From NCBI GenBank assembly GCA_964649615.1, contig CAZYPW010000002.1:2969-66968 (forward strand): a DNA stretch of 64,000 nt, written 5' to 3'. Below, one piece after another: positions 39 to 14,140 of this stretch (positions are counted from its first letter, which is position 1; every line of letters starts with the position of its first letter). A model generated the notes under the pieces. The model saw only the letters and a list, made by a program, of their open reading frames with translations, was not told where the DNA came from and did not search any database. Origin of the DNA: an uncultured Gammaproteobacteria bacterium. Its GTDB lineage: Bacteria; Patescibacteriota; Microgenomatia; Daviesbacterales; UBA10151. Both the position numbers and the translations under genes were made by a program.

Positions 39-1040
39 CTATCTTTTCAACTTTATACCAATATTTTGATGAATTGCTTTTTGGTATACATGATAAGCCA
101 CTGCAATATCTTCCAAAGACATACCAAATGGATTAAAAATTATTATTTCATCATCATTTTCCCGTCCTGGTTTTTTATTTAAAATAATACCTGATAGCTC
201 TGCATGAATAGCAGGGAGTTTACCCTCTCTAAACATCCTTCCGAAGATTCTTTTATCATCATTTTTAACAAGATTCCAGTCATCTACTATTAACTTATCG
301 GCTCTAGTTATAACCTCCGGGAGTAAATCATCTAGTGAGACATGAACCACGAGAGCGCCTTTTTTTAACCAATTATATTTAATGTAACCTGCATTTGTGG
401 TGGTGGTAGTTATAATTATATCTGAATTTATTACTGCTTCTTTAGGATTTTTTGCAACTATAAATTTTTCTTTTAAATTTTTGAACCTTTCAATAAATTT
501 TTTGATAGAAAGCTCGTTTGAATCAAATATATAAATATTTTTAATTTTCTTTAGGTGTTTACTTAGTAAATCTAAATGCGCTTTACCAATTGTACCCAGC
601 CCAATAATTGCTATTGTATTATCCCAATCCTTCTTTCTTAATAAATCTATTCCTAATGCGCTAACGCTTGCAGTTCGGAGTGAAGATATAAAAGAGCCTT
701 CCATCATACAGATAATTTTTGCAGTCAGAGTATCAAAAAGTAAGGTTAAACCACTGGCCCGCTCAATACCCCTTTTAAAATTTGAAATATTCCCATTAAT
801 AATTTTTGTCCCTGCGATTTGGTAATTTGCTCCAATAAACGCAGGCATATTTAAACTTCTTGCTGCTTCTTTTTCTTTATTTGTCCATGATAAATAAGCT
901 TCATCAGGAAGTACTGTATTACCGGTTCCGTGTAGTTTAAAAGCCTCTTCTATAATCTTTACTGTTTCCAGACCTTCGCATATTTTAATAACTTCTTCCT
1001 TGTTTAAATAAAGGATATAATCTTTGTTATCATTTGACAT
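39..1040 (-). CDS. Ornithine cyclodeaminase / mu-crystallin family NAD-dependent enzyme (SbnB-like)
   Basis: Rossmann motif IIGLGTIGKAHLDLL and OCD-family length. The likely start is the internal MSNDNK (ORF track extends to 1094). Divergent from a CysK/SbnA-like gene. Confidence 0.7.
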   Translation of the reverse strand: MSNDNKDYILYLNKEEVIKICEGLETVKIIEEAFKLHGTGNTVLPDEAYLSWTNKEKEAARSLNMPAFIGANYQIAGTKIINGNISNFKRGIERASGLTLLFDTLTAKIICMMEGSFISSLRTASVSALGIDLLRKKDWDNTIAIIGLGTIGKAHLDLLSKHLKKIKNIYIFDSNELSIKKFIERFKNLKEKFIVAKNPKEAVINSDIIITTTTTNAGYIKYNWLKKGALVVHVSLDDLLPEVITRADKLIVDDWNLVKNDDKRIFGRMFREGKLPAIHAELSGIILNKKPGRENDDEIIIFNPFGMSLEDIAVAYHVYQKAIHQNIGIKLKR

Positions 1041-1059
1041 ATTTACTATACTAGCAGAA

Positions 1060-2010
1060 ATGATATATAACGATCCACTAAAATTAATTGGCAATGCCCC
1101 TTTGGTTAAACTTATTAAAATTAGTAAAAAATTTAATGCTAATTTTTATGTAAAGCTGGAAAAATATAACCTGACAGGATCTGTAAAAGACCGCGCAGCC
1201 TTAGGAATGATAGAAAAGGGAGAAAAGACGGGAGTTCTAAAACCAGGAATGACCCTAATTGAATCCTCATCCGGAAATTTGGGGATCGCTATAGCAGCTA
1301 TATCTAGTATTAAAGGTTATAAGTTTATATGTGTAATTGACCCAAAAACCTCAGCATCCAAGATAAGTATTATCGAAGCTTATGGAGGAAAAGTGCTTTT
1401 GGTTAAAGATAAAGACAAAGACGGTTCTTATGTAAAGATACGGATTAAAAAAGTTAAGGAGTTAGCCAGTAGCAATAAAAACTTCTATAATTTAGACCAA
1501 TACAGTAATCAGGATAATACTCTAGCGCATTTTGAAACAACTGGCCCGGAGATTTTTGATGATTTAAAAGGTAATGTAGATGCCTTGGTGGGAAGTGTTA
1601 GTACATCAGGTACAATGGTTGGTACTGCAAAATTTTTGAAGAGTAGGATTCCTCACCTTTTTGTTATAGAGGTGGAACCTGTAGGATCAATTTTATTTGG
1701 AGGAGAATACAAACCTTATTATCAGCAAGGGCCGGGATTAAGTTTTATACCAAAAATTTTTGATAATTCTATATTTGATGAGTCGGTGAAAGTAAAAGAC
1801 AAAGATGCTTTTAAAACTGCCCATGATCTAGCAAAAAAAGAAGGAATTATCGTAGGAGGATCTTCTGGGGCAGCGGTCTATGCTGCTATAAAAACAAAAA
1901 AGAAGAATGTTGGTTTAAAAAGTATTGTTATAATTTGCCCTGATGGAGGAGAGAGATATTTAGACACTATGTTTTCCAAATCCTGGCTTAAAGAGCGGAA
2001 CTTAATTTAG
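1060..2010 (+). CDS. PLP-dependent cysteine synthase family enzyme (CysK/SbnA-like)
   Basis: SVKDRAA PLP-lysine motif, SSGNLGIAIA glycine loop, about 315 aa. The track start at 1024 is TTG; ATG at 1060 preferred. Confidence 0.75.
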   Translation: MIYNDPLKLIGNAPLVKLIKISKKFNANFYVKLEKYNLTGSVKDRAALGMIEKGEKTGVLKPGMTLIESSSGNLGIAIAAISSIKGYKFICVIDPKTSASKISIIEAYGGKVLLVKDKDKDGSYVKIRIKKVKELASSNKNFYNLDQYSNQDNTLAHFETTGPEIFDDLKGNVDALVGSVSTSGTMVGTAKFLKSRIPHLFVIEVEPVGSILFGGEYKPYYQQGPGLSFIPKIFDNSIFDESVKVKDKDAFKTAHDLAKKEGIIVGGSSGAAVYAAIKTKKKNVGLKSIVIICPDGGERYLDTMFSKSWLKERNLI

Positions 2011-2683
2011 GTAGCCTATATTTAATAGGATCTGTTAATCCTAAACTCTGAAAAGCTGCCTGGCGTGATCTACAGTTACTACATCCACCGCAAGCTAGCT
2101 TGCTGGCGTTATGACAGGACCAGGTTTTCTCAAATGGTACGTTTAGAGCTACCCCTGTTTGAATAACCTGAGCTTTATTCATTTCAATCAAAGGAGCAGT
2201 GATTGCAATATCAGTTTTGATCATTGTGCCAAGTTGAGTCAGACGCTGAAAAGCCTCGATAAACGCAGGTGAATTATCAGGGGCTATCCGGTCACTGCCT
2301 GTTGAACCAATGTATACTCTATCAGCACCTAAAACTTCAGCTAGAGCTACTCCAACTGCAAGAAGCAGGGAATTCCTAAAAGGGACATATTCAAATTTCT
2401 CATTTGCCTGTGTAAGAGAAACATCTCTTCTAAATAATCCAGAACCTCCAAAGCTTCTTAACCAGGGTAATCTGACTACATCCAAACTAATTGCTTGAAA
2501 GTGTTCTGCCAAACTAACTGCGCTTTTTCTTTCCCTACCTTGAGTTTTTTGTCCATAATCTACAAACAGAAATTTGGCATCAAAACCATCCCTTTTAGCA
2601 ATGGCTACAGTTACAGCACTGTCTAAACCACCACTTACTAAACAAACAGCTAATGGTTTTGATTCAGGAGATCTGGCATTCAT
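1988..2683 (-). CDS. queC: 7-cyano-7-deazaguanine synthase QueC (PP-loop ATPase)
   Basis: PP-loop CLVSGGLDS near the N-terminus and a C-terminal zinc motif CHNASKLACGGCSNC. The track ORF is over-extended at the N-terminus; start placed at MNARSP. Confidence 0.8.
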   Translation of the reverse strand: MNARSPESKPLAVCLVSGGLDSAVTVAIAKRDGFDAKFLFVDYGQKTQGRERKSAVSLAEHFQAISLDVVRLPWLRSFGGSGLFRRDVSLTQANEKFEYVPFRNSLLLAVGVALAEVLGADRVYIGSTGSDRIAPDNSPAFIEAFQRLTQLGTMIKTDIAITAPLIEMNKAQVIQTGVALNVPFEKTWSCHNASKLACGGCSNCRSRQAAFQSLGLTDPIKYRLPKLSSAL

Positions 2684-2726: not shown

Positions 2727-3848
2727 ATGATGAAAGCTGCAAATTTAAGCTGGTTAGAAATTGACCTAAAAAAATTTAGAGAAAATATAAAGCTGATGTT
2801 TTCTGTTTTATCTCCCAAAACAAAATATATGCTAATGGTAAAAGGTAATGCTTACGGACATGGATTAATTGAAATCTCCAAAATTGCGGTTGATGAAGGA
2901 GCATCATTTCTTGGCGTATCTTCACTAAAAGAGGCTATTGAACTTAGAGTTAATAGTATAAAAATTCCTGTTTTATTGCTTTCTGAAGCAGAGCCAAATT
3001 TTATACCAGATATCATAAAATATAAAATCACACCTACAGTTTATAATTTATCCTACGTCTTAGCTTTGACAAAAGTTGCTAAACAGAAAAATAAAATTAT
3101 ACCTATACATATTAAAATTGATACAGGTTTAAACAGGTTTGGCTTTAAAGTAAATCAAGTATTGCAAGATATCGTAAAAGTTTCCCAATTCAAAAACCTT
3201 CAAATTGAGGGAATATTTACTCACTTTGCAGATGCAATAAATGATTTGAAATTAGCTAAAGAGCACCTTAGCTTATTTAATAAATTATGCAAAGAGGTTA
3301 ACTCTTATGGTATTTATCCCAAGTACAGACATACAGCAAACAGCCCGGCATTGGTTTGGCTAAAAGAATCGCATTTAGATTTAGTGAGATTTGGCCTTGC
3401 CACTTACGGCTTACAGCCATCTTTAACAAAAAAGTATCCTCTGCCAATACAACCTGCATTAACCTGGAAAACTAAAATTATGCAGATTAAATATGTAAAG
3501 ATTGGTGAATACATAGGATATGGTAAAACTTTTAAAGCCAAAAAGGATATGACCATTGCTGTAATAGGAGTAGGTTATGCAGATGGTTTTAGAAGATCAC
3601 CATTAAATTACAGAAACGTTTTAGTTCATGGAGAAAAAGTTTCAATTGTTGGTCAGGTAACTATGAATTTTACTATGATTGATGTAACTAAGCTGAAACG
3701 CTTGAAGCTTTATGATGAGGTGGTAATTATAGGTAAACAAAAAGATTCCGTTATTACATTAGAAGAAATTGCTACTATATCCGAAACAATAAATGAAGAA
3801 ATTGTCACTGCTATTTCTGCCCTTATCCCGCGAATTTATCTTAAATAA
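2727..3848 (+). CDS. alr: Alanine racemase
   Basis: MVKGNAYGHG PLP-lysine motif and fold-type III racemase length. The N-terminal track extension overlaps queC; start placed at MMKAAN. Confidence 0.85.
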   Translation: MMKAANLSWLEIDLKKFRENIKLMFSVLSPKTKYMLMVKGNAYGHGLIEISKIAVDEGASFLGVSSLKEAIELRVNSIKIPVLLLSEAEPNFIPDIIKYKITPTVYNLSYVLALTKVAKQKNKIIPIHIKIDTGLNRFGFKVNQVLQDIVKVSQFKNLQIEGIFTHFADAINDLKLAKEHLSLFNKLCKEVNSYGIYPKYRHTANSPALVWLKESHLDLVRFGLATYGLQPSLTKKYPLPIQPALTWKTKIMQIKYVKIGEYIGYGKTFKAKKDMTIAVIGVGYADGFRRSPLNYRNVLVHGEKVSIVGQVTMNFTMIDVTKLKRLKLYDEVVIIGKQKDSVITLEEIATISETINEEIVTAISALIPRIYLK

Positions 3849-3889: not shown

Positions 3890-4774
3890 ATGGTTGAAAA
3901 GGGTAGAGATATTACTGTTGTAATAGCAAGTTCTGAAGACGAAGCAGTTTTTAACTGTATTGACTCAGTTAGAGATGAGGCAAGAATTGCTGTATCACTT
4001 ACTCCATATGCCTCAATAGAAACTAGGCTTTCAAAAATGGGTATCCCTTTTGTAGTAGTACCGAGGGGAAATTTGGGTGTAACTTTTAATGCCGGAATTG
4101 AACTGGCTACAACAAACAAAGTCATAGTTATGACTGATGACGCTGCATTTAAACCAGAAGCCATTAGGAAATTAGCAGAAGGGCTAGAACAATATGATGC
4201 ATGCAAAGCAAGGCTCTCGTTTCAATATGATGACGCTCATCCATTAAGCAAAGTTGTAGCAAGTGCCAGAGATTTTATTAATTCCTCTCCAACTAGGGTA
4301 TTTACTCCGGGTCTAGCTTTAAGGAAAGATATCAGAGATCGTATGGGAGGCCATTTTTTTAATGAACAGGTTAGATGGGCAGAAGATTCTGAATTTTCCT
4401 ATAGATTTCATAGGAATGGGTTGAGCTTTGGTTATATTCAGGATGCAGTTGTCACTCATCCTGCAGTTTCATTAAAACATGATTTAAGAGGTGCTTTTTT
4501 GATAGGATTGAGTAAAAGAAGGGCTGTTGATTTAGGACTAAGGAAAGGAGATGAAGACGTTGTACCTACATTCAAAAGAATTCTTTCAGGAGAGACTTTT
4601 GGAAGAAAAAGCAGACTATTTAGAGAAAAAGGGGCTAGTACATTGGTTTACATGCTCCTTTGGGATTCTGCTTATAATATCGGTTATAACTTGAGAAGAT
4701 TAGGGCTATCAGGCCCAATAGAAGATAGAATATGGCAGGACTTTGGTAGGGATCAACGTAATATAGTAAATTAA
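3890..4774 (+). CDS. Family 2 glycosyltransferase (GT-A fold)
   Basis: ITVVIASSEDEA N-terminal motif, DXD-like MTDDAAF, acidic WAEDSEF motif. Confidence 0.55.
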   Translation: MVEKGRDITVVIASSEDEAVFNCIDSVRDEARIAVSLTPYASIETRLSKMGIPFVVVPRGNLGVTFNAGIELATTNKVIVMTDDAAFKPEAIRKLAEGLEQYDACKARLSFQYDDAHPLSKVVASARDFINSSPTRVFTPGLALRKDIRDRMGGHFFNEQVRWAEDSEFSYRFHRNGLSFGYIQDAVVTHPAVSLKHDLRGAFLIGLSKRRAVDLGLRKGDEDVVPTFKRILSGETFGRKSRLFREKGASTLVYMLLWDSAYNIGYNLRRLGLSGPIEDRIWQDFGRDQRNIVN

Positions 4775-4782
4775 TTTTTATT

Positions 4783-6465
4783 ATGGGAAAAGAACAGGTA
4801 ATCTTAGGTATAAACGGTTACTCAAGAAGAACCCATAATGCTTCAGCGTGCATCGTGATTAATGGTGAATTGGTAGCCATGGCAGAAGAAGAAAGATTCT
4901 CAAGAAGGAAAAATGCCTTTGGTGAAGTTCCACACCATGCTATAGCTTTTTGTCTTGATAAAACTGGTATATCTGTAGATGAGGTGGAAAGTATAGCTGT
5001 AGGCTGGAATTTTGATAAAGTATTTGGAAATATAGGTTCCAGACCACCTACTAAGGATGACCTCCTAGACCTTTATTTACCTAAGGATAGATTTAAATAT
5101 TCCAAAAGACCAGAATTAGAAATGGTTCCACACCATATGGCTCACGCTGCTTCAGCATACTACTTATCCGGTATGCCTGAATCATTAATACTGGTTATTG
5201 ATGGGCAAGGGGAAACACAATCAACCAGTGTATTTATTGGTAAAGGTAAGGATATCTCACTTATCAAAGAGTTTGGGGTAACAGATTCGCTTGGCTATTT
5301 TTATGAGGCTGTATCTGAATATGTAGGTTTATCAAGGCTTGATGCGGGTAAAACAATGGGATTAGCAAGTTATGGTAATCCAAGGTATAGATTTGGCTTA
5401 TTTGAAATGGGCAGTTCGGGTTATTTAGTTAATATGGGTCAACCAGTCCAAACAGAAATGGATTTACAACAGGAAGTTACCAATTCCTGGAGAAACTATT
5501 TAGAAAATACATTTGGACCAAGGAATAGAGGGCAATTAGTATACGATCCAGCTACAACAAGATTTAAGAGAGAAATTTCTTTTAATGAAAGCTATAAAGA
5601 TATCGCTGCTTCTGCTCAGAAAACTTTAGAGGCTGTAATTAGGCATTTAATCACTCTATATTCAGGTGAATATCAGATGAGTAATTTATGTATTGCAGGA
5701 GGGGTAGGTCTAAATTGTTCAATGAATGGAGCAATTGCCAGAGAAGAGATTGTTAGAGATCTATTTGTGCCTCCATTTTCTGACGACGCAGGGGTATCAG
5801 TTGGCGCAGCTTTATATTTATCTGACCAAAAACCCTCTTCCAGATTAGAATCAGCATCACTCGGACCTGAATTTTCAAATGAAGCAATTATTGCTACTCT
5901 TGAACTACTCGGAATTAATTACAGGTTAGTAGACGATATTGGAAGCATTGTGGCTAAACTTCTCGCGGAGGATAAAATAGTTGACTGGTTTCAGGGAAGA
6001 ATGGAGGCAGGACCAAGAGCTTTAGGAAATCGAAGCATATTGGGAAATCCTGCAAATAGAACAACGCATGATAGATTAAACGTAATAAAAAATCGGGAAA
6101 GCTGGAGACCTCTTGCGCCCAGCTTTTTAGCTGAAGGGCTAGCCGACTATATGATACATCCTTCAGATTCACCATTTATGTTAAGAGCTTTCATTGTACG
6201 GTCAGACCGAGTAGATGAAATACCTGCAGCTGTCCATATAGATGGAACTTCAAGAGCACAAACAGTAACAGAAAAAGATAACCCTTTATATTACAGATTA
6301 ATTAGGGATTTCCAACGGATTAGCGGTATCCCTGCTGTTATGAATACATCTTTTAATCTGGATTTTGAACCAATAGTTTGCTCACCTCATGATGCAATAA
6401 GAACTTTTTATTCAAGTGGCGCTGACTATTTAGCTATTGGGGATGCACTTATTTCAAAAAAGTAA
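4783..6465 (+). CDS. Carbamoyltransferase, NodU/CmcH/TobZ family
   Basis: N-terminus GINGYSRRTHNASACIV...AEEERFSRRKN, 560 aa, with the family's N and C domains. Confidence 0.8.
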   Translation: MGKEQVILGINGYSRRTHNASACIVINGELVAMAEEERFSRRKNAFGEVPHHAIAFCLDKTGISVDEVESIAVGWNFDKVFGNIGSRPPTKDDLLDLYLPKDRFKYSKRPELEMVPHHMAHAASAYYLSGMPESLILVIDGQGETQSTSVFIGKGKDISLIKEFGVTDSLGYFYEAVSEYVGLSRLDAGKTMGLASYGNPRYRFGLFEMGSSGYLVNMGQPVQTEMDLQQEVTNSWRNYLENTFGPRNRGQLVYDPATTRFKREISFNESYKDIAASAQKTLEAVIRHLITLYSGEYQMSNLCIAGGVGLNCSMNGAIAREEIVRDLFVPPFSDDAGVSVGAALYLSDQKPSSRLESASLGPEFSNEAIIATLELLGINYRLVDDIGSIVAKLLAEDKIVDWFQGRMEAGPRALGNRSILGNPANRTTHDRLNVIKNRESWRPLAPSFLAEGLADYMIHPSDSPFMLRAFIVRSDRVDEIPAAVHIDGTSRAQTVTEKDNPLYYRLIRDFQRISGIPAVMNTSFNLDFEPIVCSPHDAIRTFYSSGADYLAIGDALISKK

Positions 6466-6477
6466 TTATTAAAGTTT

Positions 6478-7149
6478 ATGGAAAAAGAAAAGAGGACGAA
6501 TTATAGAGTAAAAACTCCTAGCATTTGGCCTGCCGCAAACCAGAGGTTTTTTAGATTTTTGAAAGGAATTGAAGACAGAAATTTTCCTAAAACCTTGGCT
6601 ATTTTGGGCTGCTCAGATGGGAGTTATGTATTGCCCGCAGCAAAAAGAGGGTTTGCAGTGCTTGCAATAGATACTGACCATGTGGCTTTATATGGAGGTG
6701 TTATTCCGCTTTATAGAAATAATGTTGAAGTAATGGGTTTAACAAACAGACTTAAAGTAGAGGGTATTGAAAGCCAGGTAACAGTTGTATGCGATGATTG
6801 CTTTTCATATAATCCAAGAAATACTTTCTCAGGAGTATTTACCAGTGGTTTGATCCATTATCAAGATAATTCCCACTATCCGTTAAGCCAAATTATCAAT
6901 GGTATTCAATCATATGTAGCTCCGGGAGGTTTATTGATTATGGAATATATTCATCCTTCTGATGAAAATAATGATCCATTAAGACATTTCCCAACTGCGA
7001 AAGAATTGGTACAATACTTCCAGGTAAAAGACTGGAAAGTTACGAGTAACAAGAAAAAAAGGTATACTGAAGGTCCAAATCCTCGCAACCCACGTATTCA
7101 TGATATTGTATGGGGAAGGTTATATGCACAAAAACTTAAGTCAAATTAA
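6478..7149 (+). CDS. Putative class I SAM-dependent methyltransferase
   Basis: Glycine-rich LAILGCSDGSYVL...LAIDTD resembling a SAM-binding motif I/II. Weak. Confidence 0.4.
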   Translation: MEKEKRTNYRVKTPSIWPAANQRFFRFLKGIEDRNFPKTLAILGCSDGSYVLPAAKRGFAVLAIDTDHVALYGGVIPLYRNNVEVMGLTNRLKVEGIESQVTVVCDDCFSYNPRNTFSGVFTSGLIHYQDNSHYPLSQIINGIQSYVAPGGLLIMEYIHPSDENNDPLRHFPTAKELVQYFQVKDWKVTSNKKKRYTEGPNPRNPRIHDIVWGRLYAQKLKSN

Positions 7150-7885
7150 TTTGAAGCAGTTAAAAAAAAATTATGATGAGATAGGCATCCGGGTCGGTTG
7201 GGATTTCTCACGAATGAAAGATGAAAAAGAGTCTGCTCCATGGGACTATATTGAGATCGTGATTCGATATATTAAATCAACAGATTATGTTCTAGATATT
7301 GGTACAGGCGGTGGAGAAAAGTTCATTAAGTTATCCCAATATTTTTCCAAAGGAGTGGGTATTGATCCTTATCCAGAAATGATTAATACAGCGAAAAATA
7401 ACGCTGCTAAAAGCAATAATACTAAACTCTCTTTTGAATTGATGGGTGCAGAAGATATTCAGTTTCAGGAAAATACCTTTGATACTGTCCTTAACCGTCA
7501 TGCTCTAGTTGTTCCAAAGGAGGTAGTTAGAGTTTTAAAACCTGGTGGATATTTTATAACTCAACAAGTAGCAAAAAATAATATGCAAAATATAAAACAA
7601 GTTTTTAATTATAGAAAGACTTGGCAAAACGACGCACTTACTCTAAGTCGTGATTTTGAAAAAAATGGATGTAGGGTTATTGCCACAGGGAAATACAACA
7701 TCAATTATTGGGTAAAGGATCTTGAGTCACTGGTTTTCTGGTTAAAAGCAGTTGATTTACCCGAAAATTTTAATATCGAAGATCATGGTTTACAGTTACT
7801 GAAGTTTATTAAACAATACACGACACCAAAAGGATTTATAACTAATGAATCCAGGGAGTTTTTAATAGCCCAAAAAGTAAAATGA
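7124..7885 (+). CDS. Class I SAM-dependent methyltransferase (Methyltransf_11-like)
   Basis: VLDIGTGGGE motif I and VLKPGGYFI motif. Confidence 0.65.
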   Translation: MHKNLSQINLKQLKKNYDEIGIRVGWDFSRMKDEKESAPWDYIEIVIRYIKSTDYVLDIGTGGGEKFIKLSQYFSKGVGIDPYPEMINTAKNNAAKSNNTKLSFELMGAEDIQFQENTFDTVLNRHALVVPKEVVRVLKPGGYFITQQVAKNNMQNIKQVFNYRKTWQNDALTLSRDFEKNGCRVIATGKYNINYWVKDLESLVFWLKAVDLPENFNIEDHGLQLLKFIKQYTTPKGFITNESREFLIAQKVK

Positions 7886-9144
7886 CAGAACGTTTTAAGG
7901 ATCTACAAGCAGAATTAATTGAGGGGGCTCGAATTCAGGATGCTTACGATTTAAATACTATCAATTTGATTGCTCCTGCCAGCCCAACACTTTTAAAATA
8001 TTTTTACAATCTTCCTCTTAGGCATAATGCTATAGCTGAGGGCTTATTAGGACGCAGACCTTATGCTGGAGTTGAAGGCTTTAACAAAATTGAAGCAATT
8101 GCTGTCGAGGCAGCATGTTTATTATTTGGAGCAGAACATGCTAATGTTCAACCTCATTCTGTTAGTCAGGCAAATCAAGCTGTATATCAGGCACTTTTGG
8201 GAAATGGAGATCGAGTACTGGCTATGAAGTTTGAGGACGGAGGACATTTAACCCATGGCCTAAAGACTAATTTTTCCGGACGTTTTTTTGATTTTGATTT
8301 TTATGGAGTTGATCGGACAACTGGTTTAATAGATTATGATGCCCTAGAGAAACAGGCAAAAGATTTTAAGCCTAAATTAATTGTCTGCGGTGCTTCTTCT
8401 TATCCTAGAGCAATTGATTTTGAAAGATTAGCCGATATCTCAGCTAAAGTAGGCGCCTATTTAATGGCAGATTTATCCCATCCTGCTGGATTGATTGTGG
8501 CAAAAAGGTTTCTTCAACCTTTTCCTCATTGCGATGTCGTTACATTTACCCCTGATAAAACCATGCTTGGTCCTCACGGGGGGATAATTCTTTGTAAGGA
8601 TACCTTAAGTGAACAAGTAGATAAAGGCGTTCATCCCGGGGTCCAATCAAGTGTGCCCTTGAGAAGAATTTATGAAATGGCTCAATGTATGATTGATGCC
8701 AGTAAGCCAGAGTTTCAAGATTATATTGACCGGGTCATTAAAAATATCAAAGCATTTGAACAGGTATTTTTGGATAGTCCAGGCATGATGGTAACAGGTG
8801 GAAGCGATACCCATTTAATGGTTATAAATACAAGAGATACTTTTGGCTTAACTGGTAGGGATTCAGAGGGAGTATTAGAGAGTATTGGTATTCTGACTAA
8901 CCGCCAGGTAATTCCAGGAGAAAAACTTAGGCCTTACGTAGCCAGCGGGCTTAGGTTTGGTACTTCTTGGATAACAGCTAGAGGTTATGATCAGGCGGAG
9001 ACAGCGGTTGTCGCGGGAATAATGTTAGATAATCTATCTAATCCAAAAAATCCTGTGGTGCAAGAAAGATCTAGGAATTTAGTTAATGATCTTCTGCAAA
9101 TCAGGAGAGAAAAAGATGTCTGGCTTGAGGAAGGTAGTAAATAG
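7882..9144 (+). CDS. glyA: Serine hydroxymethyltransferase family PLP enzyme
   Basis: GGHLTHG motif and the PLP-lysine region VTFTPDKTMLGPHGG, matching the SHMT TTHKTLRGPRGG block. Confidence 0.75.
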   Translation: MTERFKDLQAELIEGARIQDAYDLNTINLIAPASPTLLKYFYNLPLRHNAIAEGLLGRRPYAGVEGFNKIEAIAVEAACLLFGAEHANVQPHSVSQANQAVYQALLGNGDRVLAMKFEDGGHLTHGLKTNFSGRFFDFDFYGVDRTTGLIDYDALEKQAKDFKPKLIVCGASSYPRAIDFERLADISAKVGAYLMADLSHPAGLIVAKRFLQPFPHCDVVTFTPDKTMLGPHGGIILCKDTLSEQVDKGVHPGVQSSVPLRRIYEMAQCMIDASKPEFQDYIDRVIKNIKAFEQVFLDSPGMMVTGGSDTHLMVINTRDTFGLTGRDSEGVLESIGILTNRQVIPGEKLRPYVASGLRFGTSWITARGYDQAETAVVAGIMLDNLSNPKNPVVQERSRNLVNDLLQIRREKDVWLEEGSK

Positions 9145-9145
9145 T

Positions 9146-10078
9146 ATGCCAAGAATAGAAGAACAATCACTTGCGATAACCATGGCCAGTGACGAAAAAT
9201 ATATTCCTTATATAACTACTGCTCTAAGAAGCATAAGAAGATATAACACCACCATCCAGATTGATGTTTATAGTTGTGCAAATATCAGACCACTTCTTCC
9301 TTTGGATGGGGTTAACGCTAGATTCCATGAGGTAACAGTGCCGAAAAAGCTCACTGCTTCTTTGGATGGGGAAGAGCTAGCTCATGCTTCAACAAGGGTG
9401 GCGAAGCTAGAATCGCTTACCCAAAGGGGTACTGATAAATTAATGTATGTCGATTGCGATATCGTTGTACTGGATGATTTAGGAAAGATAACTCAAGAAC
9501 TGCCAGTTGATGGTAGCGACAATCCAATAGTTTACATGCTTTTAAGACGACCCGATCTTCTATCAGTAAACGATCTTAGTTGGCTTTACTTTAGAGATAG
9601 TTCCCAATTATCAAACCAGCAAATGACCGGATTGGTCAACGATACTTTTTCTTTAGACTATTCTACCGAGAGATTTCAAGCTCTTAGATGCTGGAATGGA
9701 GGCCTTGTATATGGTTCAACCCAAGGGGTTAATATTCTTGGGGACTTATGGAAGGATTACTATAACCGAATGCTGACACATAGAGATAGAGGTTCGTTCA
9801 TTCCCAACGACCAGCTTTGTCTTTGGTTAGCAGCCGAGCAACTGGAAAAAGTACTAACAATAAGAGAACTACCCCTAGCTTGGAACTTTATGCCAGGACA
9901 TGCACTGGAAGAAGTTATGGGAAAAGCAGATCCAAAACTTGAGGAAATTAAGAAAGCTTTAGGTGGGGTAAAAATTCTGCATTTCGCACAGAATAAAACT
10001 GATCCGTGGGTTCAAGTCCTTGTGGATGATATTAATTCAGAAAAAGGTAGCAGCTTTCAAGGAAGCACTACACCATGA
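9146..10078 (+). CDS. GT8-like nucleotide-diphospho-sugar glycosyltransferase
   Basis: MASDEKYIPY N-terminal pattern and YVDCDIVVLDD DXD motif typical of GT8. Confidence 0.45.
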   Translation: MPRIEEQSLAITMASDEKYIPYITTALRSIRRYNTTIQIDVYSCANIRPLLPLDGVNARFHEVTVPKKLTASLDGEELAHASTRVAKLESLTQRGTDKLMYVDCDIVVLDDLGKITQELPVDGSDNPIVYMLLRRPDLLSVNDLSWLYFRDSSQLSNQQMTGLVNDTFSLDYSTERFQALRCWNGGLVYGSTQGVNILGDLWKDYYNRMLTHRDRGSFIPNDQLCLWLAAEQLEKVLTIRELPLAWNFMPGHALEEVMGKADPKLEEIKKALGGVKILHFAQNKTDPWVQVLVDDINSEKGSSFQGSTTP

Positions 10079-10767
10079 GCCAAGTTGAATCAACTGATTC
10101 AAAACTGATCCACCGACCCCAATATAGCTTCGCTAATCCCGACTCCGCTCTTTTTCTCACCGGTACTCCTTTATCAGGTAAATCTACGATAGCTCCTTTA
10201 GTTGCTGCCAATATTGAAGGTTGTACTGTTCAGAATATGGATATTATCCGGTTATTAGCCCAGGAAATGGAAACACGTAAACCGGAAAGTGAAAGAAATC
10301 CCTTCGTAAGGTATGGCTCTTGCGACAGTTATCTTTTTGTAGGAGATGGTTCGTACTCACCCCAGAGCCTTGTGACTGGATTTAATTACTATGCACGGGC
10401 TGTTTCTTCCTTATTAACAGGAATTATCCCAAGGTTAGAAGTTCAGGGAGCACAAAGAGTGTTATTTGAAGGTGTTCAATTAACACCAGGAATAGTATCC
10501 CCGTTTTTAGTTGGTAATAATAAGTTAATAGTAATTACCTCAGATGAGGCTAGATTAGGTGCTAATAGAGATAAACGCTACGGCAAAGATAAAGAATTAC
10601 TTGAGAGGTATTCACTTGATAGATTATTATTATTGCAAGGAGAAATTATGAGGCAAAGCCAACAAGTTCCTCCTGATAAAATATTTTTTGTTGATAATTC
10701 TGGAGATTATATAGATTCAACAATGCGGATAATTCGTCTTTTAATAGCTGAAGGCATAATTGCTTAA
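10075..10767 (+). CDS. P-loop NTPase / small-molecule kinase-like protein
   Basis: Walker A GTPLSGKST. Size and architecture resemble 2-phosphoglycerate kinase, TmrB or chloramphenicol-phosphotransferase families. Confidence 0.4.
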   Translation: MSQVESTDSKLIHRPQYSFANPDSALFLTGTPLSGKSTIAPLVAANIEGCTVQNMDIIRLLAQEMETRKPESERNPFVRYGSCDSYLFVGDGSYSPQSLVTGFNYYARAVSSLLTGIIPRLEVQGAQRVLFEGVQLTPGIVSPFLVGNNKLIVITSDEARLGANRDKRYGKDKELLERYSLDRLLLLQGEIMRQSQQVPPDKIFFVDNSGDYIDSTMRIIRLLIAEGIIA

Positions 10768-10791: not shown

Positions 10792-11508
10792 ATGGAACAG
10801 GTTTTTTTCGAGGAAATTAATGGCAAAAAAGTTTTTTGTTTCTTATCAGAACCAAATAATTTATCTAAAAAGATAGTTATTATGAGCCATGGTTTCAGGG
10901 GTACTAATGTAGGACCTGCCAGACAATTTGTAGATTTTCAGAGGATACTTAGTAAAGAGGGTTTTTCAGTGCTTCGTTTTGACCAGCCCAATAGCGGAAA
11001 CTCAGAAGGGAACTATATTAACTCTTCATTTAAGGAATGGGTAAATACAATTGTCTATTTTGCAAAGAAATATATTGACTTAGGGTATGATGTAAACATT
11101 TTGGGACAAAGCATGGGTGCCACAGCTACAGTTATAGCGACAAATGACCAGAAAATAGAAGATAAAGTATCCTGTTTGTTACTTTGGGTGCCTGATCCAG
11201 AAACAGATTTTTCCGGTGAATCACAAGAAATTTATGAAGAAGGTGGCCAGAAATATAAAGGAAGTTTTTGGCAGGAAGCAAAAGATGCTGACTTTTTTCA
11301 ATGCTTAAATAATTACCAAGGTAAGATACATCTAGTATATGGAGAGGTAGATAGATATATAACAAAATATTTGATCAATAAAACAATAAAAATTGTACGG
11401 GAGAAAGGACAAGACGTAATGATATTAAAAAATCAGGATCATAGTCCTTGGGAGTTTGATTTAGTACAAGAAGTTTATAAACAAGAATTAGCCAAACTAC
11501 GAGAATAA
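10792..11508 (+). CDS. Alpha/beta hydrolase
   Basis: HGFRG oxyanion region and nucleophile elbow GQSMGA (GxSxG). Confidence 0.65.
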   Translation: MEQVFFEEINGKKVFCFLSEPNNLSKKIVIMSHGFRGTNVGPARQFVDFQRILSKEGFSVLRFDQPNSGNSEGNYINSSFKEWVNTIVYFAKKYIDLGYDVNILGQSMGATATVIATNDQKIEDKVSCLLLWVPDPETDFSGESQEIYEEGGQKYKGSFWQEAKDADFFQCLNNYQGKIHLVYGEVDRYITKYLINKTIKIVREKGQDVMILKNQDHSPWEFDLVQEVYKQELAKLRE

Positions 11509-11514
11509 ATTTCA

Positions 11515-12504
11515 ATGGAACAGATTAATGAATCACTATCGATGGTACTCAGTGCAGCAGATAAGACCTATATATTAACTAGTCTCGTAGTTGAGTTTAT
11601 TGATGTCCTACAAAGAGATGGTGCGACTAGAACAACAGACATTGCTAGGGCAACTTCTTTACCCAAACGAACACTAAGACGGTTAGTTGGCGAACTCGAT
11701 TCTTGTGTGAGGATAGATCGTGATCGTTATTCATTAACTAGCGAAGGGGAACATCTGGCTTCAGAATTATTTAGCTACCGACAAAAACGCTTTGGGGAAG
11801 TGGAGAAAAGAGGAGAACAAGGGTTGGTATTGCTAGAACAGATTGAGAAGGAGCGGGGCCCATCAAAGAGAAATCTTGATCAATTCCGAGTAACACCAGC
11901 AACATCCATTGTCAGAGCTAAGCTGGCAGATGAGAAATTCGATATTGTGGGTAGGCGAATTGTCTTCTTGGGTGATAATGACCTTACGTCAGTAGCCGTA
12001 GCCACTCTTGGTGGTTCATCTAGGATAACTGTGCTTGATATAGATAGTGATGTTCTAGAAGCGATAACTAGAACAGCTAAACTACGCGATTTGAACATCG
12101 AGTGCGTTTCGTATGATGCCAGAGAGCCGCTTAAATCCAATCTGCGCGACAGCTTTGATATACTCTTTACTGATCCGCCTTACACTCGAAGTGGTGTGCG
12201 TTTGTTCTTATCGCGAGCGGCAGGGCTTTTGAATGAAGCACCTGGAACATCCTACTTCTCGTACGGTTTTAGCCTCCGCGCCCGCGAACGCGGACTTGCA
12301 ATACAGCGGTTGATTGCTGAACAAGGCTGGCTCGTTTACGGTATGTGGCCAGGATTCAATCAGTATTACGCGGCAGGTTCAATTGGAGCACGATCTGATT
12401 TATATCGTTTGATTCGTACCCCAAAGACAGTAAACCTAGTCCCAGGACGTTTCCTTGATAACATCTATACAGGCCTAGATTTATCACAACCGCATTTGGC
12501 ATAA
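11515..12504 (+). CDS. DUF43-family protein (BpsA-like branched-chain polyamine synthase / methyltransferase fold) with an N-terminal wHTH
   Basis: IVFLGDNDLTSVA and FTDPPYT motifs recalled for DUF43, plus an N-terminal winged-helix segment. Confidence 0.45.
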   Translation: MEQINESLSMVLSAADKTYILTSLVVEFIDVLQRDGATRTTDIARATSLPKRTLRRLVGELDSCVRIDRDRYSLTSEGEHLASELFSYRQKRFGEVEKRGEQGLVLLEQIEKERGPSKRNLDQFRVTPATSIVRAKLADEKFDIVGRRIVFLGDNDLTSVAVATLGGSSRITVLDIDSDVLEAITRTAKLRDLNIECVSYDAREPLKSNLRDSFDILFTDPPYTRSGVRLFLSRAAGLLNEAPGTSYFSYGFSLRARERGLAIQRLIAEQGWLVYGMWPGFNQYYAAGSIGARSDLYRLIRTPKTVNLVPGRFLDNIYTGLDLSQPHLA

Positions 12505-12545: not shown

Positions 12546-13568
12546 ATGGCAAAACAAGAATTTATAGGATATAGTACTCATTGTCTTCAAGACGTTCAGA
12601 GGCGTTTAGCCCAAGTAGACGCAACTCCAAATGAGGAAATTGGGCAACATTTCCTGGTTAATCAAGGAGCTATAGATTTGTTGGCACAAACAGTAAATCC
12701 AGGGAGTACTGTAATAGAGGTAGGCTGTGGGGTAGGACATATAACTGAAAGGTTGGCAGAAAGAGCAGCAAAGTTACATGGTATTGAGATTGACCGAAGG
12801 TATAGGCCTCTTCTGGATGGGTTGACTAGCAGATTCAGTAATTTAAATGTAATTTATGGGGATGCATTAGCAGTAGATTTTGATAGGCTATTACATGGTG
12901 ATAAACAAGAAGATGGGCAAATTATTGCAAGTTTACCGTATCATATTACTGAACCATTTATACAAAAAGTTACTCCGCTAAAATTGTCTAGTGTAACTTT
13001 AGTAGTAGGTAGAAGGTATGCTGACTCAATAGCTGCTTCAGTTGATTCAGGTGAGTTTGGCAGATTAAGTATTCTAACTGCAACATTTTTTGATGTTGAA
13101 ACACTGGCAACAATTCAAAGAGATGGATTCTTCCCGATTCCAAGAACTGATTCAGCAATGGTACAGCTTAGACCAAGAGAGCCAGAAGAAGTAGGATCTA
13201 ATAGAAGAGATATCATATTTAGACATTTATTTCTGACATCAAAGCAAAATTCAACATTAAGAAAGGGTTTGAAGGAAGGATTAGATGTATTTGAACTAGC
13301 TAGAGATAGTATAGGTTTATCTAAAAAGGAACGTAACCGTAAATCCAGAGTCAATACAAAACTACGTTTAAGAGAAGCTTTAGGACAGGTTAATAGAGGG
13401 AATGTCGATAGTGAAAATCAATCAGATGCTTCTAATTCAGCAAGTTTACTGTCCAGATTGAGTAGAAATACAATCGCCAAATTAAATATTCCCGATATGA
13501 CACTTGATAAGCCATTTGCGCTACTCAATAATTCAGAATTAAGAATGCTCTATCAGTCTTTAGGTTAA
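12546..13568 (+). CDS. KsgA/Dim1/Erm-family rRNA adenine N6-dimethyltransferase with an extended C-terminus
   Basis: QHFLVNQ (QNFL-like) motif, SAM motif EVGCGVGHIT, LPYHITEP (NLPYNIS-like). 340 aa, longer than KsgA (about 270) or Erm (about 245). Confidence 0.75.
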   Translation: MAKQEFIGYSTHCLQDVQRRLAQVDATPNEEIGQHFLVNQGAIDLLAQTVNPGSTVIEVGCGVGHITERLAERAAKLHGIEIDRRYRPLLDGLTSRFSNLNVIYGDALAVDFDRLLHGDKQEDGQIIASLPYHITEPFIQKVTPLKLSSVTLVVGRRYADSIAASVDSGEFGRLSILTATFFDVETLATIQRDGFFPIPRTDSAMVQLRPREPEEVGSNRRDIIFRHLFLTSKQNSTLRKGLKEGLDVFELARDSIGLSKKERNRKSRVNTKLRLREALGQVNRGNVDSENQSDASNSASLLSRLSRNTIAKLNIPDMTLDKPFALLNNSELRMLYQSLG

Positions 13569-14040: not shown

Positions 14041-14066
14041 ATTTATCTTGTTCTGACAGTCTAAAG

Positions 14067-14140
14067 TACCGCGTACGGGAGTCGAACCCGTGATTTCTGG
14101 GATGAAAACCCAACGTCCTAGGCCACTAGACGAACGCGGC
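14067..14140 (-). tRNA. tRNA-Glu (anticodon UUC)
   Basis: The reverse complement folds as a cloverleaf with a GUCUAGUGGCCUAGGAC D-arm like E. coli tRNA-Glu. Anticodon loop UUUUCAU, T-loop TTCGACT. Confidence 0.8.

Follow-up and report, generated by a model that had tools for sequence, protein, structure and literature searches.

Why would a bacterium with a 1.1-Mb genome resembling those of the candidate phyla radiation (CPR) carry a pair of genes related to sbnA and sbnB, the genes for L-2,3-diaminopropionate (L-Dap) synthesis in Staphylococcus aureus? We addressed this question in a 64,000-nucleotide stretch of assembly GCA_964649615.1 (contig CAZYPW010000002.1, positions 2,969 to 66,968), referred to here as the window, in which the two genes lie at the left end. 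The host genome (G000) was assembled from groundwater DNA metagenomes and comprises 1.136 Mb in 31 contigs at 97.5% completeness; the window starts 2,968 bases into contig C2, so that the left flank of the pair lies outside it. To our knowledge, the one role known for L-Dap synthesis of the SbnA/SbnB type is to supply siderophores, non-ribosomal peptides or β-lactams, and CPR-like ultra-small bacteria are usually regarded as nearly devoid of specialised metabolism. Here we describe the family membership, active-site signature, linkage to 7-deazaguanine (que) genes, modularity and rarity of the pair, and from analogy with characterised systems we infer its substrates, Dap as its product and the use of Dap. 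On balance, we favour the view that the pair is a two-step L-Dap synthase serving as an optional precursor module of a rare 7-deazaguanine cluster, with Dap likely passing into a product resembling the peptidyl 7-deazapurines.

Two long open reading frames (ORFs), 39..1094 (−) and 1024..2010 (+), overlap in their 5′ extensions. Since close homologues of the two proteins are also 333 and 316 aa long, ATG 1040 (minus strand; P0001, 333 aa) and ATG 1060 (plus strand; P0002, 316 aa) were taken as the probable starts. This places the sbnB-like gene at 42..1040 (−), with its stop codon at 39-41, and the sbnA-like gene at 1060..2010 (+). The genes are oriented head-to-head with a spacer of 19 bp between the start codons (1041..1059). 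A preliminary description of this DNA had called them both divergent and back-to-back; the first term holds and the second does not. The spacer contains TATACT, and a −35-like TTGTTA lies within the sbnB coding region, but these are matches to consensus only, as a promoter scan found promoter-like sites in the region to be no commoner than in shuffled sequence. P0001 was confirmed as a NAD-dependent enzyme of the ornithine cyclodeaminase (OCD)/mu-crystallin family (Pfam OCD_Mu_crystall, 1e-43) with the GxGxxG motif (IIGLGTIGK), and is a predicted N-(2-amino-2-carboxyethyl)-L-glutamate (ACEGA) dehydrogenase. P0002 likewise proved to be the pyridoxal phosphate (PLP) enzyme with an SVKDR lysine that had been described (Pfam PALP, 1e-67; GSVKDR, Lys43). 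It is a fold-type II β-replacement enzyme and a predicted ACEGA synthase acting on O-phospho-L-serine. By Pfam, P0001 and P0002 are the only OCD_Mu_crystall member and the only PALP member in the genome.

The PLP enzyme could belong either with SbnA or with the cysteine synthases CysK/CysM and cystathionine β-synthase (CBS), which have the same PLP fold and lysine motif and are 35-45% identical to it. The best NCBIfam model for P0002 was TIGR03945 SbnA at 327.4 bits, followed by cysKM at 294.7. Single-sequence PDB matches did not discriminate, with CBS, cysteine synthases and SbnA all falling between 1e-70 and 1e-59. In S. aureus SbnA, the residues R132, Y152 and S185 are reported to select O-phosphoserine (PMC12414870). 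K43, ESSSGNL, R128, Q147-Y148 and S181 of P0002 correspond to K47, the loop 72-78, R132, Q151-Y152 and S185 of the S. aureus enzyme, so that the PLP lysine, the ESxSGN[LM] loop and the three selecting residues are all kept. In a comparison of 41 sequences, P0002 and its whole clade were identical to Ralstonia SbnA at 15 of 15 active-site positions. In contrast, CysK carries A/C/N in place of the Arg, Phe in place of the Tyr and GTGGT in place of STSGT (Gly for the Ser), and its loop reads GNT rather than GNL. The comparison of SbnA-specific with CysK-specific residues, which the preliminary description had proposed, therefore gave the SbnA set throughout. P0002 also fell outside the CysK and CBS clade (support 100/99) in a maximum-likelihood (ML) tree, and an approximately unbiased (AU) test rejected its grouping with CysK/CBS (p 0.0006); placement within bona fide CysK/CysM, the outcome named earlier as fatal to the proposal, was thus not what we found. 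These results support an SbnA-like enzyme, rather than a cysteine synthase, as the identity of P0002.

For P0001 the family scores were more widely separated. TIGR03944 SbnB was the best NCBIfam model at 275.2 bits, a lead of 118 bits over the next family at 157. The best PDB relative was S. aureus SbnB (4m54, 3e-64), to which residues 9-331 aligned, followed by CmnK from the capreomycin pathway (1e-52) and an archaeal alanine dehydrogenase (1e-31). Alignment to both 4m54 and 7cxs was full-length, with conserved blocks shared with SbnB and CmnK and the NAD-binding Rossmann motif GLGTIGK in place. In an ML tree of 40 sequences, P0001 lay in an SbnB clade (support 100/99) together with Bacillus SbnB proteins, SbnB from the staphyloferrin B locus of Ralstonia and a large group from Ktedonobacteria, with non-ribosomal peptide synthetase (NRPS) genes next to it. 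The clade left out the ornithine cyclodeaminase (Ocd) of Agrobacterium, EutC and further OCD-family proteins; a position among ornithine cyclodeaminases unlinked to SbnB, the second outcome that had been thought capable of overturning the proposal, did not materialise. Resting on clade membership and overall alignment, the assignment of P0001 as SbnB-like, rather than as an ornithine cyclodeaminase, is supported. Family scores, PDB matches, trees, the AU test and the active-site residues thus agree with the SbnA/SbnB-like identity first proposed for the two proteins.

An everyday explanation would be that P0002 is the host's cysteine synthase or CBS and P0001 an unrelated ornithine cyclodeaminase or alanine dehydrogenase. 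P0002 is the sole PALP-family gene of the genome, and its best single-sequence PDB matches are annotated as CBS and cysteine synthases. Against this stand the AU test and the absence from P0002 of the CysK/CBS signature (GNT loop, no Arg, GTGGT), as well as the firm position of P0001 within the SbnB clade. The genome yielded no bona fide CysE, and a gene present in about one in 96 related genomes is not a housekeeping gene. We therefore consider this explanation very improbable. A close SbnB homologue occurred in 1/96 genomes of the order and in 1/401 sampled genomes of the phylum, and two others had only OCD-family genes of 29% identity, in line with the rarity in this lineage noted at the outset.

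The same two enzyme families are paired in SbnA/SbnB of S. aureus (staphyloferrin B), CmnB/CmnK (capreomycin) and SulH/SulG (sulfazecin). If the pair works like SbnA/SbnB of S. aureus and CmnB/CmnK, the PLP enzyme would form an aminoacrylate from O-phospho-L-serine and add the amine of L-glutamate to give ACEGA. The NAD+-dependent enzyme would then oxidise ACEGA, and hydrolysis would release L-Dap and 2-oxoglutarate. The gene arrangement differs, since the known pairs are co-directional (sbnA-sbnB) whereas the genes are divergent here. When species-representative genomes were scanned with an SbnB alignment, all of the loci returned were from Ktedonobacteria/Chloroflexia (42-48% identity), and none had que genes. 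These have the canonical co-directional sbnA-sbnB order, and NRPS genes adjoin the single locus that was inspected closely.

What surrounds the pair suggests a use for the product. The preliminary description had placed the genes at the edge of an accessory island, but they sit in the middle of a cluster of approximately 16 kb built around four genes that make 7-deazaguanine from GTP. To the left, just outside the window and on the plus strand, an MscS-like gene is followed by the genes for FolE2, QueD and the radical-SAM enzyme QueE (folE2-queD-queE, G000:C2:1126-2999), with 8 bases between the end of queE and the stop codon of sbnB. To the right, a queC-family gene (1988..2683, −; 231 aa; Pfam QueC, 6e-50) runs towards sbnA and shares 23 bp with its 3′ end. 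This gene encodes a diverged, cluster-specific QueC subtype. It is in turn divergent from alr (2727..3848, +), a second alanine racemase paralogue (TIGR00492, 343 bits) whose other copy lies on contig C6. The queC/alr spacer is approximately 43 bp (2684-2726); the long upstream extensions of these two ORFs, which start with TTG at 2818 and 2574 and run into one another, are unlikely to be translated.

To what extent is this linkage conserved? Close homologues of both proteins (70-89% identity) were found on the metagenome contigs L002-L005, where folE2-queD-queE, the head-to-head sbnB/sbnA pair and queC follow in the same order as in the window. Two more distant loci are rearranged. L008 (55-57% identity) has the order carbamoyltransferase, family 2 glycosyltransferase (GT2), queC, hydrolase, then alr-sbnB diverging from sbnA, then queE-queD-folE2. 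L006 (48-58% identity) has sbnA diverging from sbnB-alr, a type-IA FolE replacing FolE2, and queD-queE-queC followed by genes for serine hydroxymethyltransferase (SHMT) and a kinase. The linkage thus survives two rearrangements and the non-orthologous replacement of FolE2 by FolE, which argues for a shared function. The divergent sbnA/sbnB arrangement itself is kept in all six related loci, with spacers of 24-137 bp, and the branching orders of the SbnA and SbnB trees match. As alr lies directly downstream of sbnB in both L006 and L008 (4-bp overlap and 6-bp gap), the unit looks like sbnA diverging from sbnB-alr; alr co-occurs with sbnAB in 6/7 loci, and the remaining one, L004, has sbnAB without alr or the hydrolase gene.

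The cluster also occurs without the pair. A genome of the same family (G046) carries it at 69-84% protein identity, with queE abutting queC. Its version contains folE2, queD, queE, queC and genes for GT2, the carbamoyltransferase, SHMT, the kinase, methyltransferases and a KsgA-like protein, and is without sbnA, sbnB, alr and the hydrolase gene. A scan with the cluster QueC yielded eight more metagenome loci (L069-L075, L081), none of which (0/8) had sbnAB. Six of the eight contain a queC-SHMT core, mostly with queD-queE, the kinase gene and the KsgA-like gene, the carbamoyltransferase and GT2 genes being present or absent; L074 and L075 have only queD-queE-queC and the KsgA-like gene. The existence of related clusters without sbnAB indicates that the pair is an optional module. 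Such a module fits the supply of a non-proteinogenic building block, which other versions of the cluster omit or swap for a common amino acid.

It could be argued instead that L-Dap is made for a purpose unrelated to the que genes, for example as a cell-envelope component together with the Alr paralogue, and that the position of the pair is an accident of insertion. The sbnAB-bearing loci do come from one fairly narrow lineage (SbnB identity 48-89%), alr is co-operonic with sbnB in L006 and L008, and in other genomes the core of the cluster does without sbnAB. However, adjacency to que genes has been kept through two independent rearrangements and the change from FolE2 to FolE, and the pair was never seen apart from the cluster in this lineage. 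Moreover, neither an NRPS nor an NRPS-independent siderophore (NIS) synthetase, the other Dap-using enzymes, was found in the genome. An accidental position consequently seems to us quite unlikely, and the reading of the pair as a precursor module of the cluster is preferred.

The classical role, in which Dap feeds a siderophore like staphyloferrin B or an NRPS peptide, was the setting that the preliminary description had in mind. Every named reference pair that we inspected adjoins NIS synthetase or NRPS genes, and a Bacillus cereus pair lies beside an ornithine carbamoyltransferase gene in what we take to be possibly the zwittermicin locus. In the 97.5%-complete host genome, however, tblastn gave no match to IucA/IucC-type synthetases, and an NRPS module gave only a weak partial adenylation-domain match to one stand-alone AMP-binding gene on another contig (C1). 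The related loci contained no NIS synthetase or NRPS genes either. Unlike the S. aureus genes, the pair has no detected NIS synthetase, NRPS or SbnI-like kinase and is embedded in the conserved folE2-queD-queE/queC cluster. The siderophore or NRPS setting does not hold for this genome, and we regard the classical role as extremely unlikely.

If Dap is a precursor for the cluster, the enzyme most likely to use it is the diverged QueC. This protein scored 134 bits against TIGR00364, under the equivalog cut-off of 150, and its best PDB match was Cap9 (1.3e-14, compared to 8e-11 for QueC). In the window copy, APDN and CHN replace the YPDC and CY motifs of QueC. [A/C/T]PDN and CHN were present in 19/19 cluster-type copies (window, L002-L008, L024, L069-L075, L081), and YPDC and CY were kept in 63/73 QueC relatives from loci without other cluster genes. 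We considered a mere lineage effect and rejected it, as the changes in YPDC and CY are peculiar to the cluster-type copies; the His of YxQxH was dropped as evidence because ordinary relatives also have Thr at this position. In E. coli QueC, Y131A (within YPDC) and Y189A abolish preQ0 formation (PMC13082051). Cap9 couples 7-carboxy-7-deazaguanine (CDG) to the amine of a protein N-terminus instead of to ammonia (bioRxiv 10.1101/2025.04.06.647259), and RoyL-type QueC homologues of Streptomyces join CDG to L-Lys, L-Orn, L-2,4-diaminobutyrate (L-Dab) or D-Ala-D-Ala (bioRxiv 10.64898/2026.04.15.718813). The cluster QueC may be an amide synthetase acting on CDG, rather than a preQ0 synthase.

A QueC of this kind with a Dap synthase and a paralogous alanine racemase as neighbours fits the RoyL/Cap9 pattern. 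L-Dap would provide the amine to which CDG, or an intermediate formed after it, is coupled, and the Alr paralogue of the operon might racemise it first. The comparison with RoyL, made by description rather than by sequence, sets an enzyme that takes diamino acids or D-Ala-D-Ala beside a QueC gene adjoined by a Dap synthase and alr. FolE, QueD, QueE and a diverged QueC are common to the window cluster and the Streptomyces clusters for peptidyl 7-deazapurines (roseomycin A, RoyL). Relative to the roseomycin family, the CPR cluster adds SHMT, a P-loop kinase, glycosyl-, carbamoyl- and methyltransferases and a KsgA-like protein, and it is without ATP-grasp and TauD proteins. Cap9, from type IV CBASS (cyclic oligonucleotide-based antiphage signalling system), is the best solved relative of the cluster QueC and shares the chemistry of joining CDG to an amine. 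It modifies a protein N-terminus in a defence operon with Cap10 and a nucleotidyltransferase of the cGAS/DncV-like (CD-NTase) type, however, and none of these is present at this locus. With the glycosylated preQ0 clusters of the huimycin/dapiramicin type, the window cluster has in common a 7-deazaguanine core, glycosyl- and methyltransferases and the lack of nucleic-acid insertion enzymes, whereas those clusters use a normal preQ0-forming QueC without a Dap module and the QueC signature is altered here. As a tentative and more specific proposal, the product could be a previously unseen Dap-containing 7-deazapurine, in which L- or D-Dap is joined to CDG by the diverged QueC and the conjugate is then glycosylated, carbamoylated and methylated.

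Several observations weigh against a dedicated L-Dap supply. Both proteins scored below the curated equivalog cut-offs of their best models (P0002, 327.4 against 349.95 bits for TIGR03945; P0001, 275.2 against 326.9 bits for TIGR03944). P0002 is not nested among the reference SbnA enzymes (100/99) but sits next to them in a separate clade, B (96/92). A clade joining the two groups was not recovered in the ML tree, and an AU test did not reject it (p 0.106). The nearest outgroup members of clade B (L007, L013, L015) have no OCD partner. The nearest relatives also differ between the two halves of the pair, SbnB being sister to Ktedonobacteria and the PLP enzyme only 32-40% identical to the Ktedonobacteria partners. 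No gene tracks sbnAB exactly across the loci, so no dedicated Dap-using enzyme was identified. The diverged QueC type is also found in clusters without sbnAB, and its amine substrate therefore need not be Dap. Finally, the usual routes to O-phosphoserine, and one to O-acetylserine, are missing from the genome, in which (at 97.5% completeness) neither SerC nor a SerA-type dehydrogenase, an SbnI-like serine kinase or a bona fide CysE was detected.

Some of these points suit a different explanation, that the pair performs SbnA/SbnB-like chemistry on other substrates, with another amine or another leaving group, and that free L-Dap is not the product. The separate clade of the PLP enzyme, the scores under the cut-offs and the lack of a detected O-phosphoserine route are all compatible with it, and substrates do vary among relatives, DabB taking O-phosphothreonine and aspartate (PMC10906522). 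On the other side, all of the residues that recognise O-phosphoserine are kept, the 15-site signature is that of Ralstonia SbnA, and P0001 aligns over its full length to SbnB and CmnK and lies within the SbnB clade. Furthermore, a cluster that can dispense with sbnAB fits the supply of a precursor better than the modification of a scaffold. We consider other substrates unlikely and retain L-Dap as the favoured product. The nearest outgroup of the CPR SbnA-like clade includes L015 (GCA_002919055.1, an archaeal-looking contig) and L007 (GCA_964409315.1), and keeps Arg and Tyr at the SbnA sites with mostly Gly at the S185 site. Two ATP-grasp genes and a ThiF-like gene come after one outgroup gene, and another overlaps the stop codon of a gene of the Orn/Arg decarboxylase family. 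These outgroup members may be SbnA-like enzymes with other amine partners.

Where could O-phosphoserine come from? An SbnI-like (ParB/Srx) serine kinase and an aminoglycoside phosphotransferase (APH)-type kinase were considered as sources and discarded, as neither had a match in the genome. Genes with a ParB N-terminal domain adjoin sbnA/sbnB in both Bacillus reference loci (B. cereus plasmids; L031, 5102-5875, and L032, 2131-2922), and are presumably counterparts of the S. aureus serine kinase SbnI. Within the window cluster, an SHMT paralogue (7882-9144, +; other copy on contig C4) and a 230-aa P-loop small-molecule kinase (10075-10767, +; Walker A GTPLSGKST; Atlas score 0.98) were evaluated as a dedicated supply. 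The kinase model has a mean predicted local distance difference test (pLDDT) score of 91, and its fold matches nucleoside monophosphate, shikimate and gluconate kinases. A dedicated role was rejected, because no cluster without sbnAB lacks either gene and the fold of the kinase gives no substrate. That the SHMT paralogue and the adjacent kinase give serine and then O-phosphoserine is only a possibility. The SHMT paralogue is 64-84% identical across all cluster variants. SHMT and the P-loop kinase occur in every variant whose contig covers that part, either adjacent or at most one gene or approximately 700 bp apart, and folE, queD, queE, queC, SHMT and the P-loop kinase make up the constant core of the cluster.

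The remaining genes are all on the plus strand. A variable block of presumed tailoring genes (3890..7885) encodes a GT2-like glycosyltransferase (3890-4774), a NodU/CmcH-type carbamoyltransferase (4783-6465) and two methyltransferases (6478-7149 and 7100-7885). The carbamoyltransferase was examined as a user of Dap, a ureido-alanine route being known for zwittermicin and viomycin; it was set aside since it does not co-vary with sbnAB, being absent from L002, L003 and L006 and present in G046. Between SHMT and the kinase lies the gene for a DxD-motif protein (9086-10078), which is variable among loci. To the right of the kinase, the gene for the α/β-hydrolase (10792-11508) occurs only in loci that also carry alr. 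The right part of the cluster continues with a DUF43-like protein (11515-12504) and ends with a KsgA/Erm-family methyltransferase (12546-13568), before tRNA-Glu at 14066-14140.

A role of the cluster in tRNA modification by queuosine was also considered. QueF and QueA were not found in the genome. A tRNA-guanine transglycosylase (TGT) gene is kept in the host, but TGT occurs in 73/96 genomes of the order whether or not they have the cluster, and the cluster-bearing G046 lacks it; a queuosine role was accordingly rejected. As full-length QueC occurs in only 5/96 genomes of the order, most relatives presumably salvage a 7-deazaguanine base. One of these five, G081, which belongs to the same family as the host, has a different 7-deazaguanine cluster (L025, G081:C56:12000-26473), consisting of folE2-queD-queE and genes for an APH-type kinase, a major facilitator superfamily (MFS) transporter, a radical-SAM protein and an enzyme like dehydroquinate synthase or iron-containing alcohol dehydrogenase. 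It further encodes two GT1/GT4 glycosyltransferases, a distant QueC, a methyltransferase, a PIG-L deacetylase and a DegT aminotransferase, and its gene content resembles an aminocyclitol/aminoglycoside pathway.

Our literature searches found no paper combining "7-deazaguanine" with "diaminopropionate", and "Patescibacteria" and "preQ0" occurred together only in unrelated microbiome surveys. A 2026 survey of ~900 deazapurine clusters contains no reference to Dap, SbnA or Patescibacteria, and RoyL-type clusters are reported mostly from Streptomyces (bioRxiv 10.64898/2026.04.15.718813). The locus thus presents a known enzyme pair in a new setting, with Dap chemistry as a plug-in module of a 7-deazaguanine cluster. 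The natural versions with and without the module (the window compared to G046 and the metagenome loci) allow the contribution of the Dap unit to the product to be compared, and the cluster offers a test of whether diverged QueC proteins outside Streptomyces are amide synthetases. A genome with no detected SerA, SerC or known serine kinase also poses the question of where its O-phosphoserine originates. If the proposed role is true, the Lys/Orn/Dab series of peptidyl deazapurines would be extended to Dap, the C3 diamino acid and next shorter member, and the interchangeable versions with and without the Dap module would constitute a small combinatorial family of bioactive deazapurines in this lineage.

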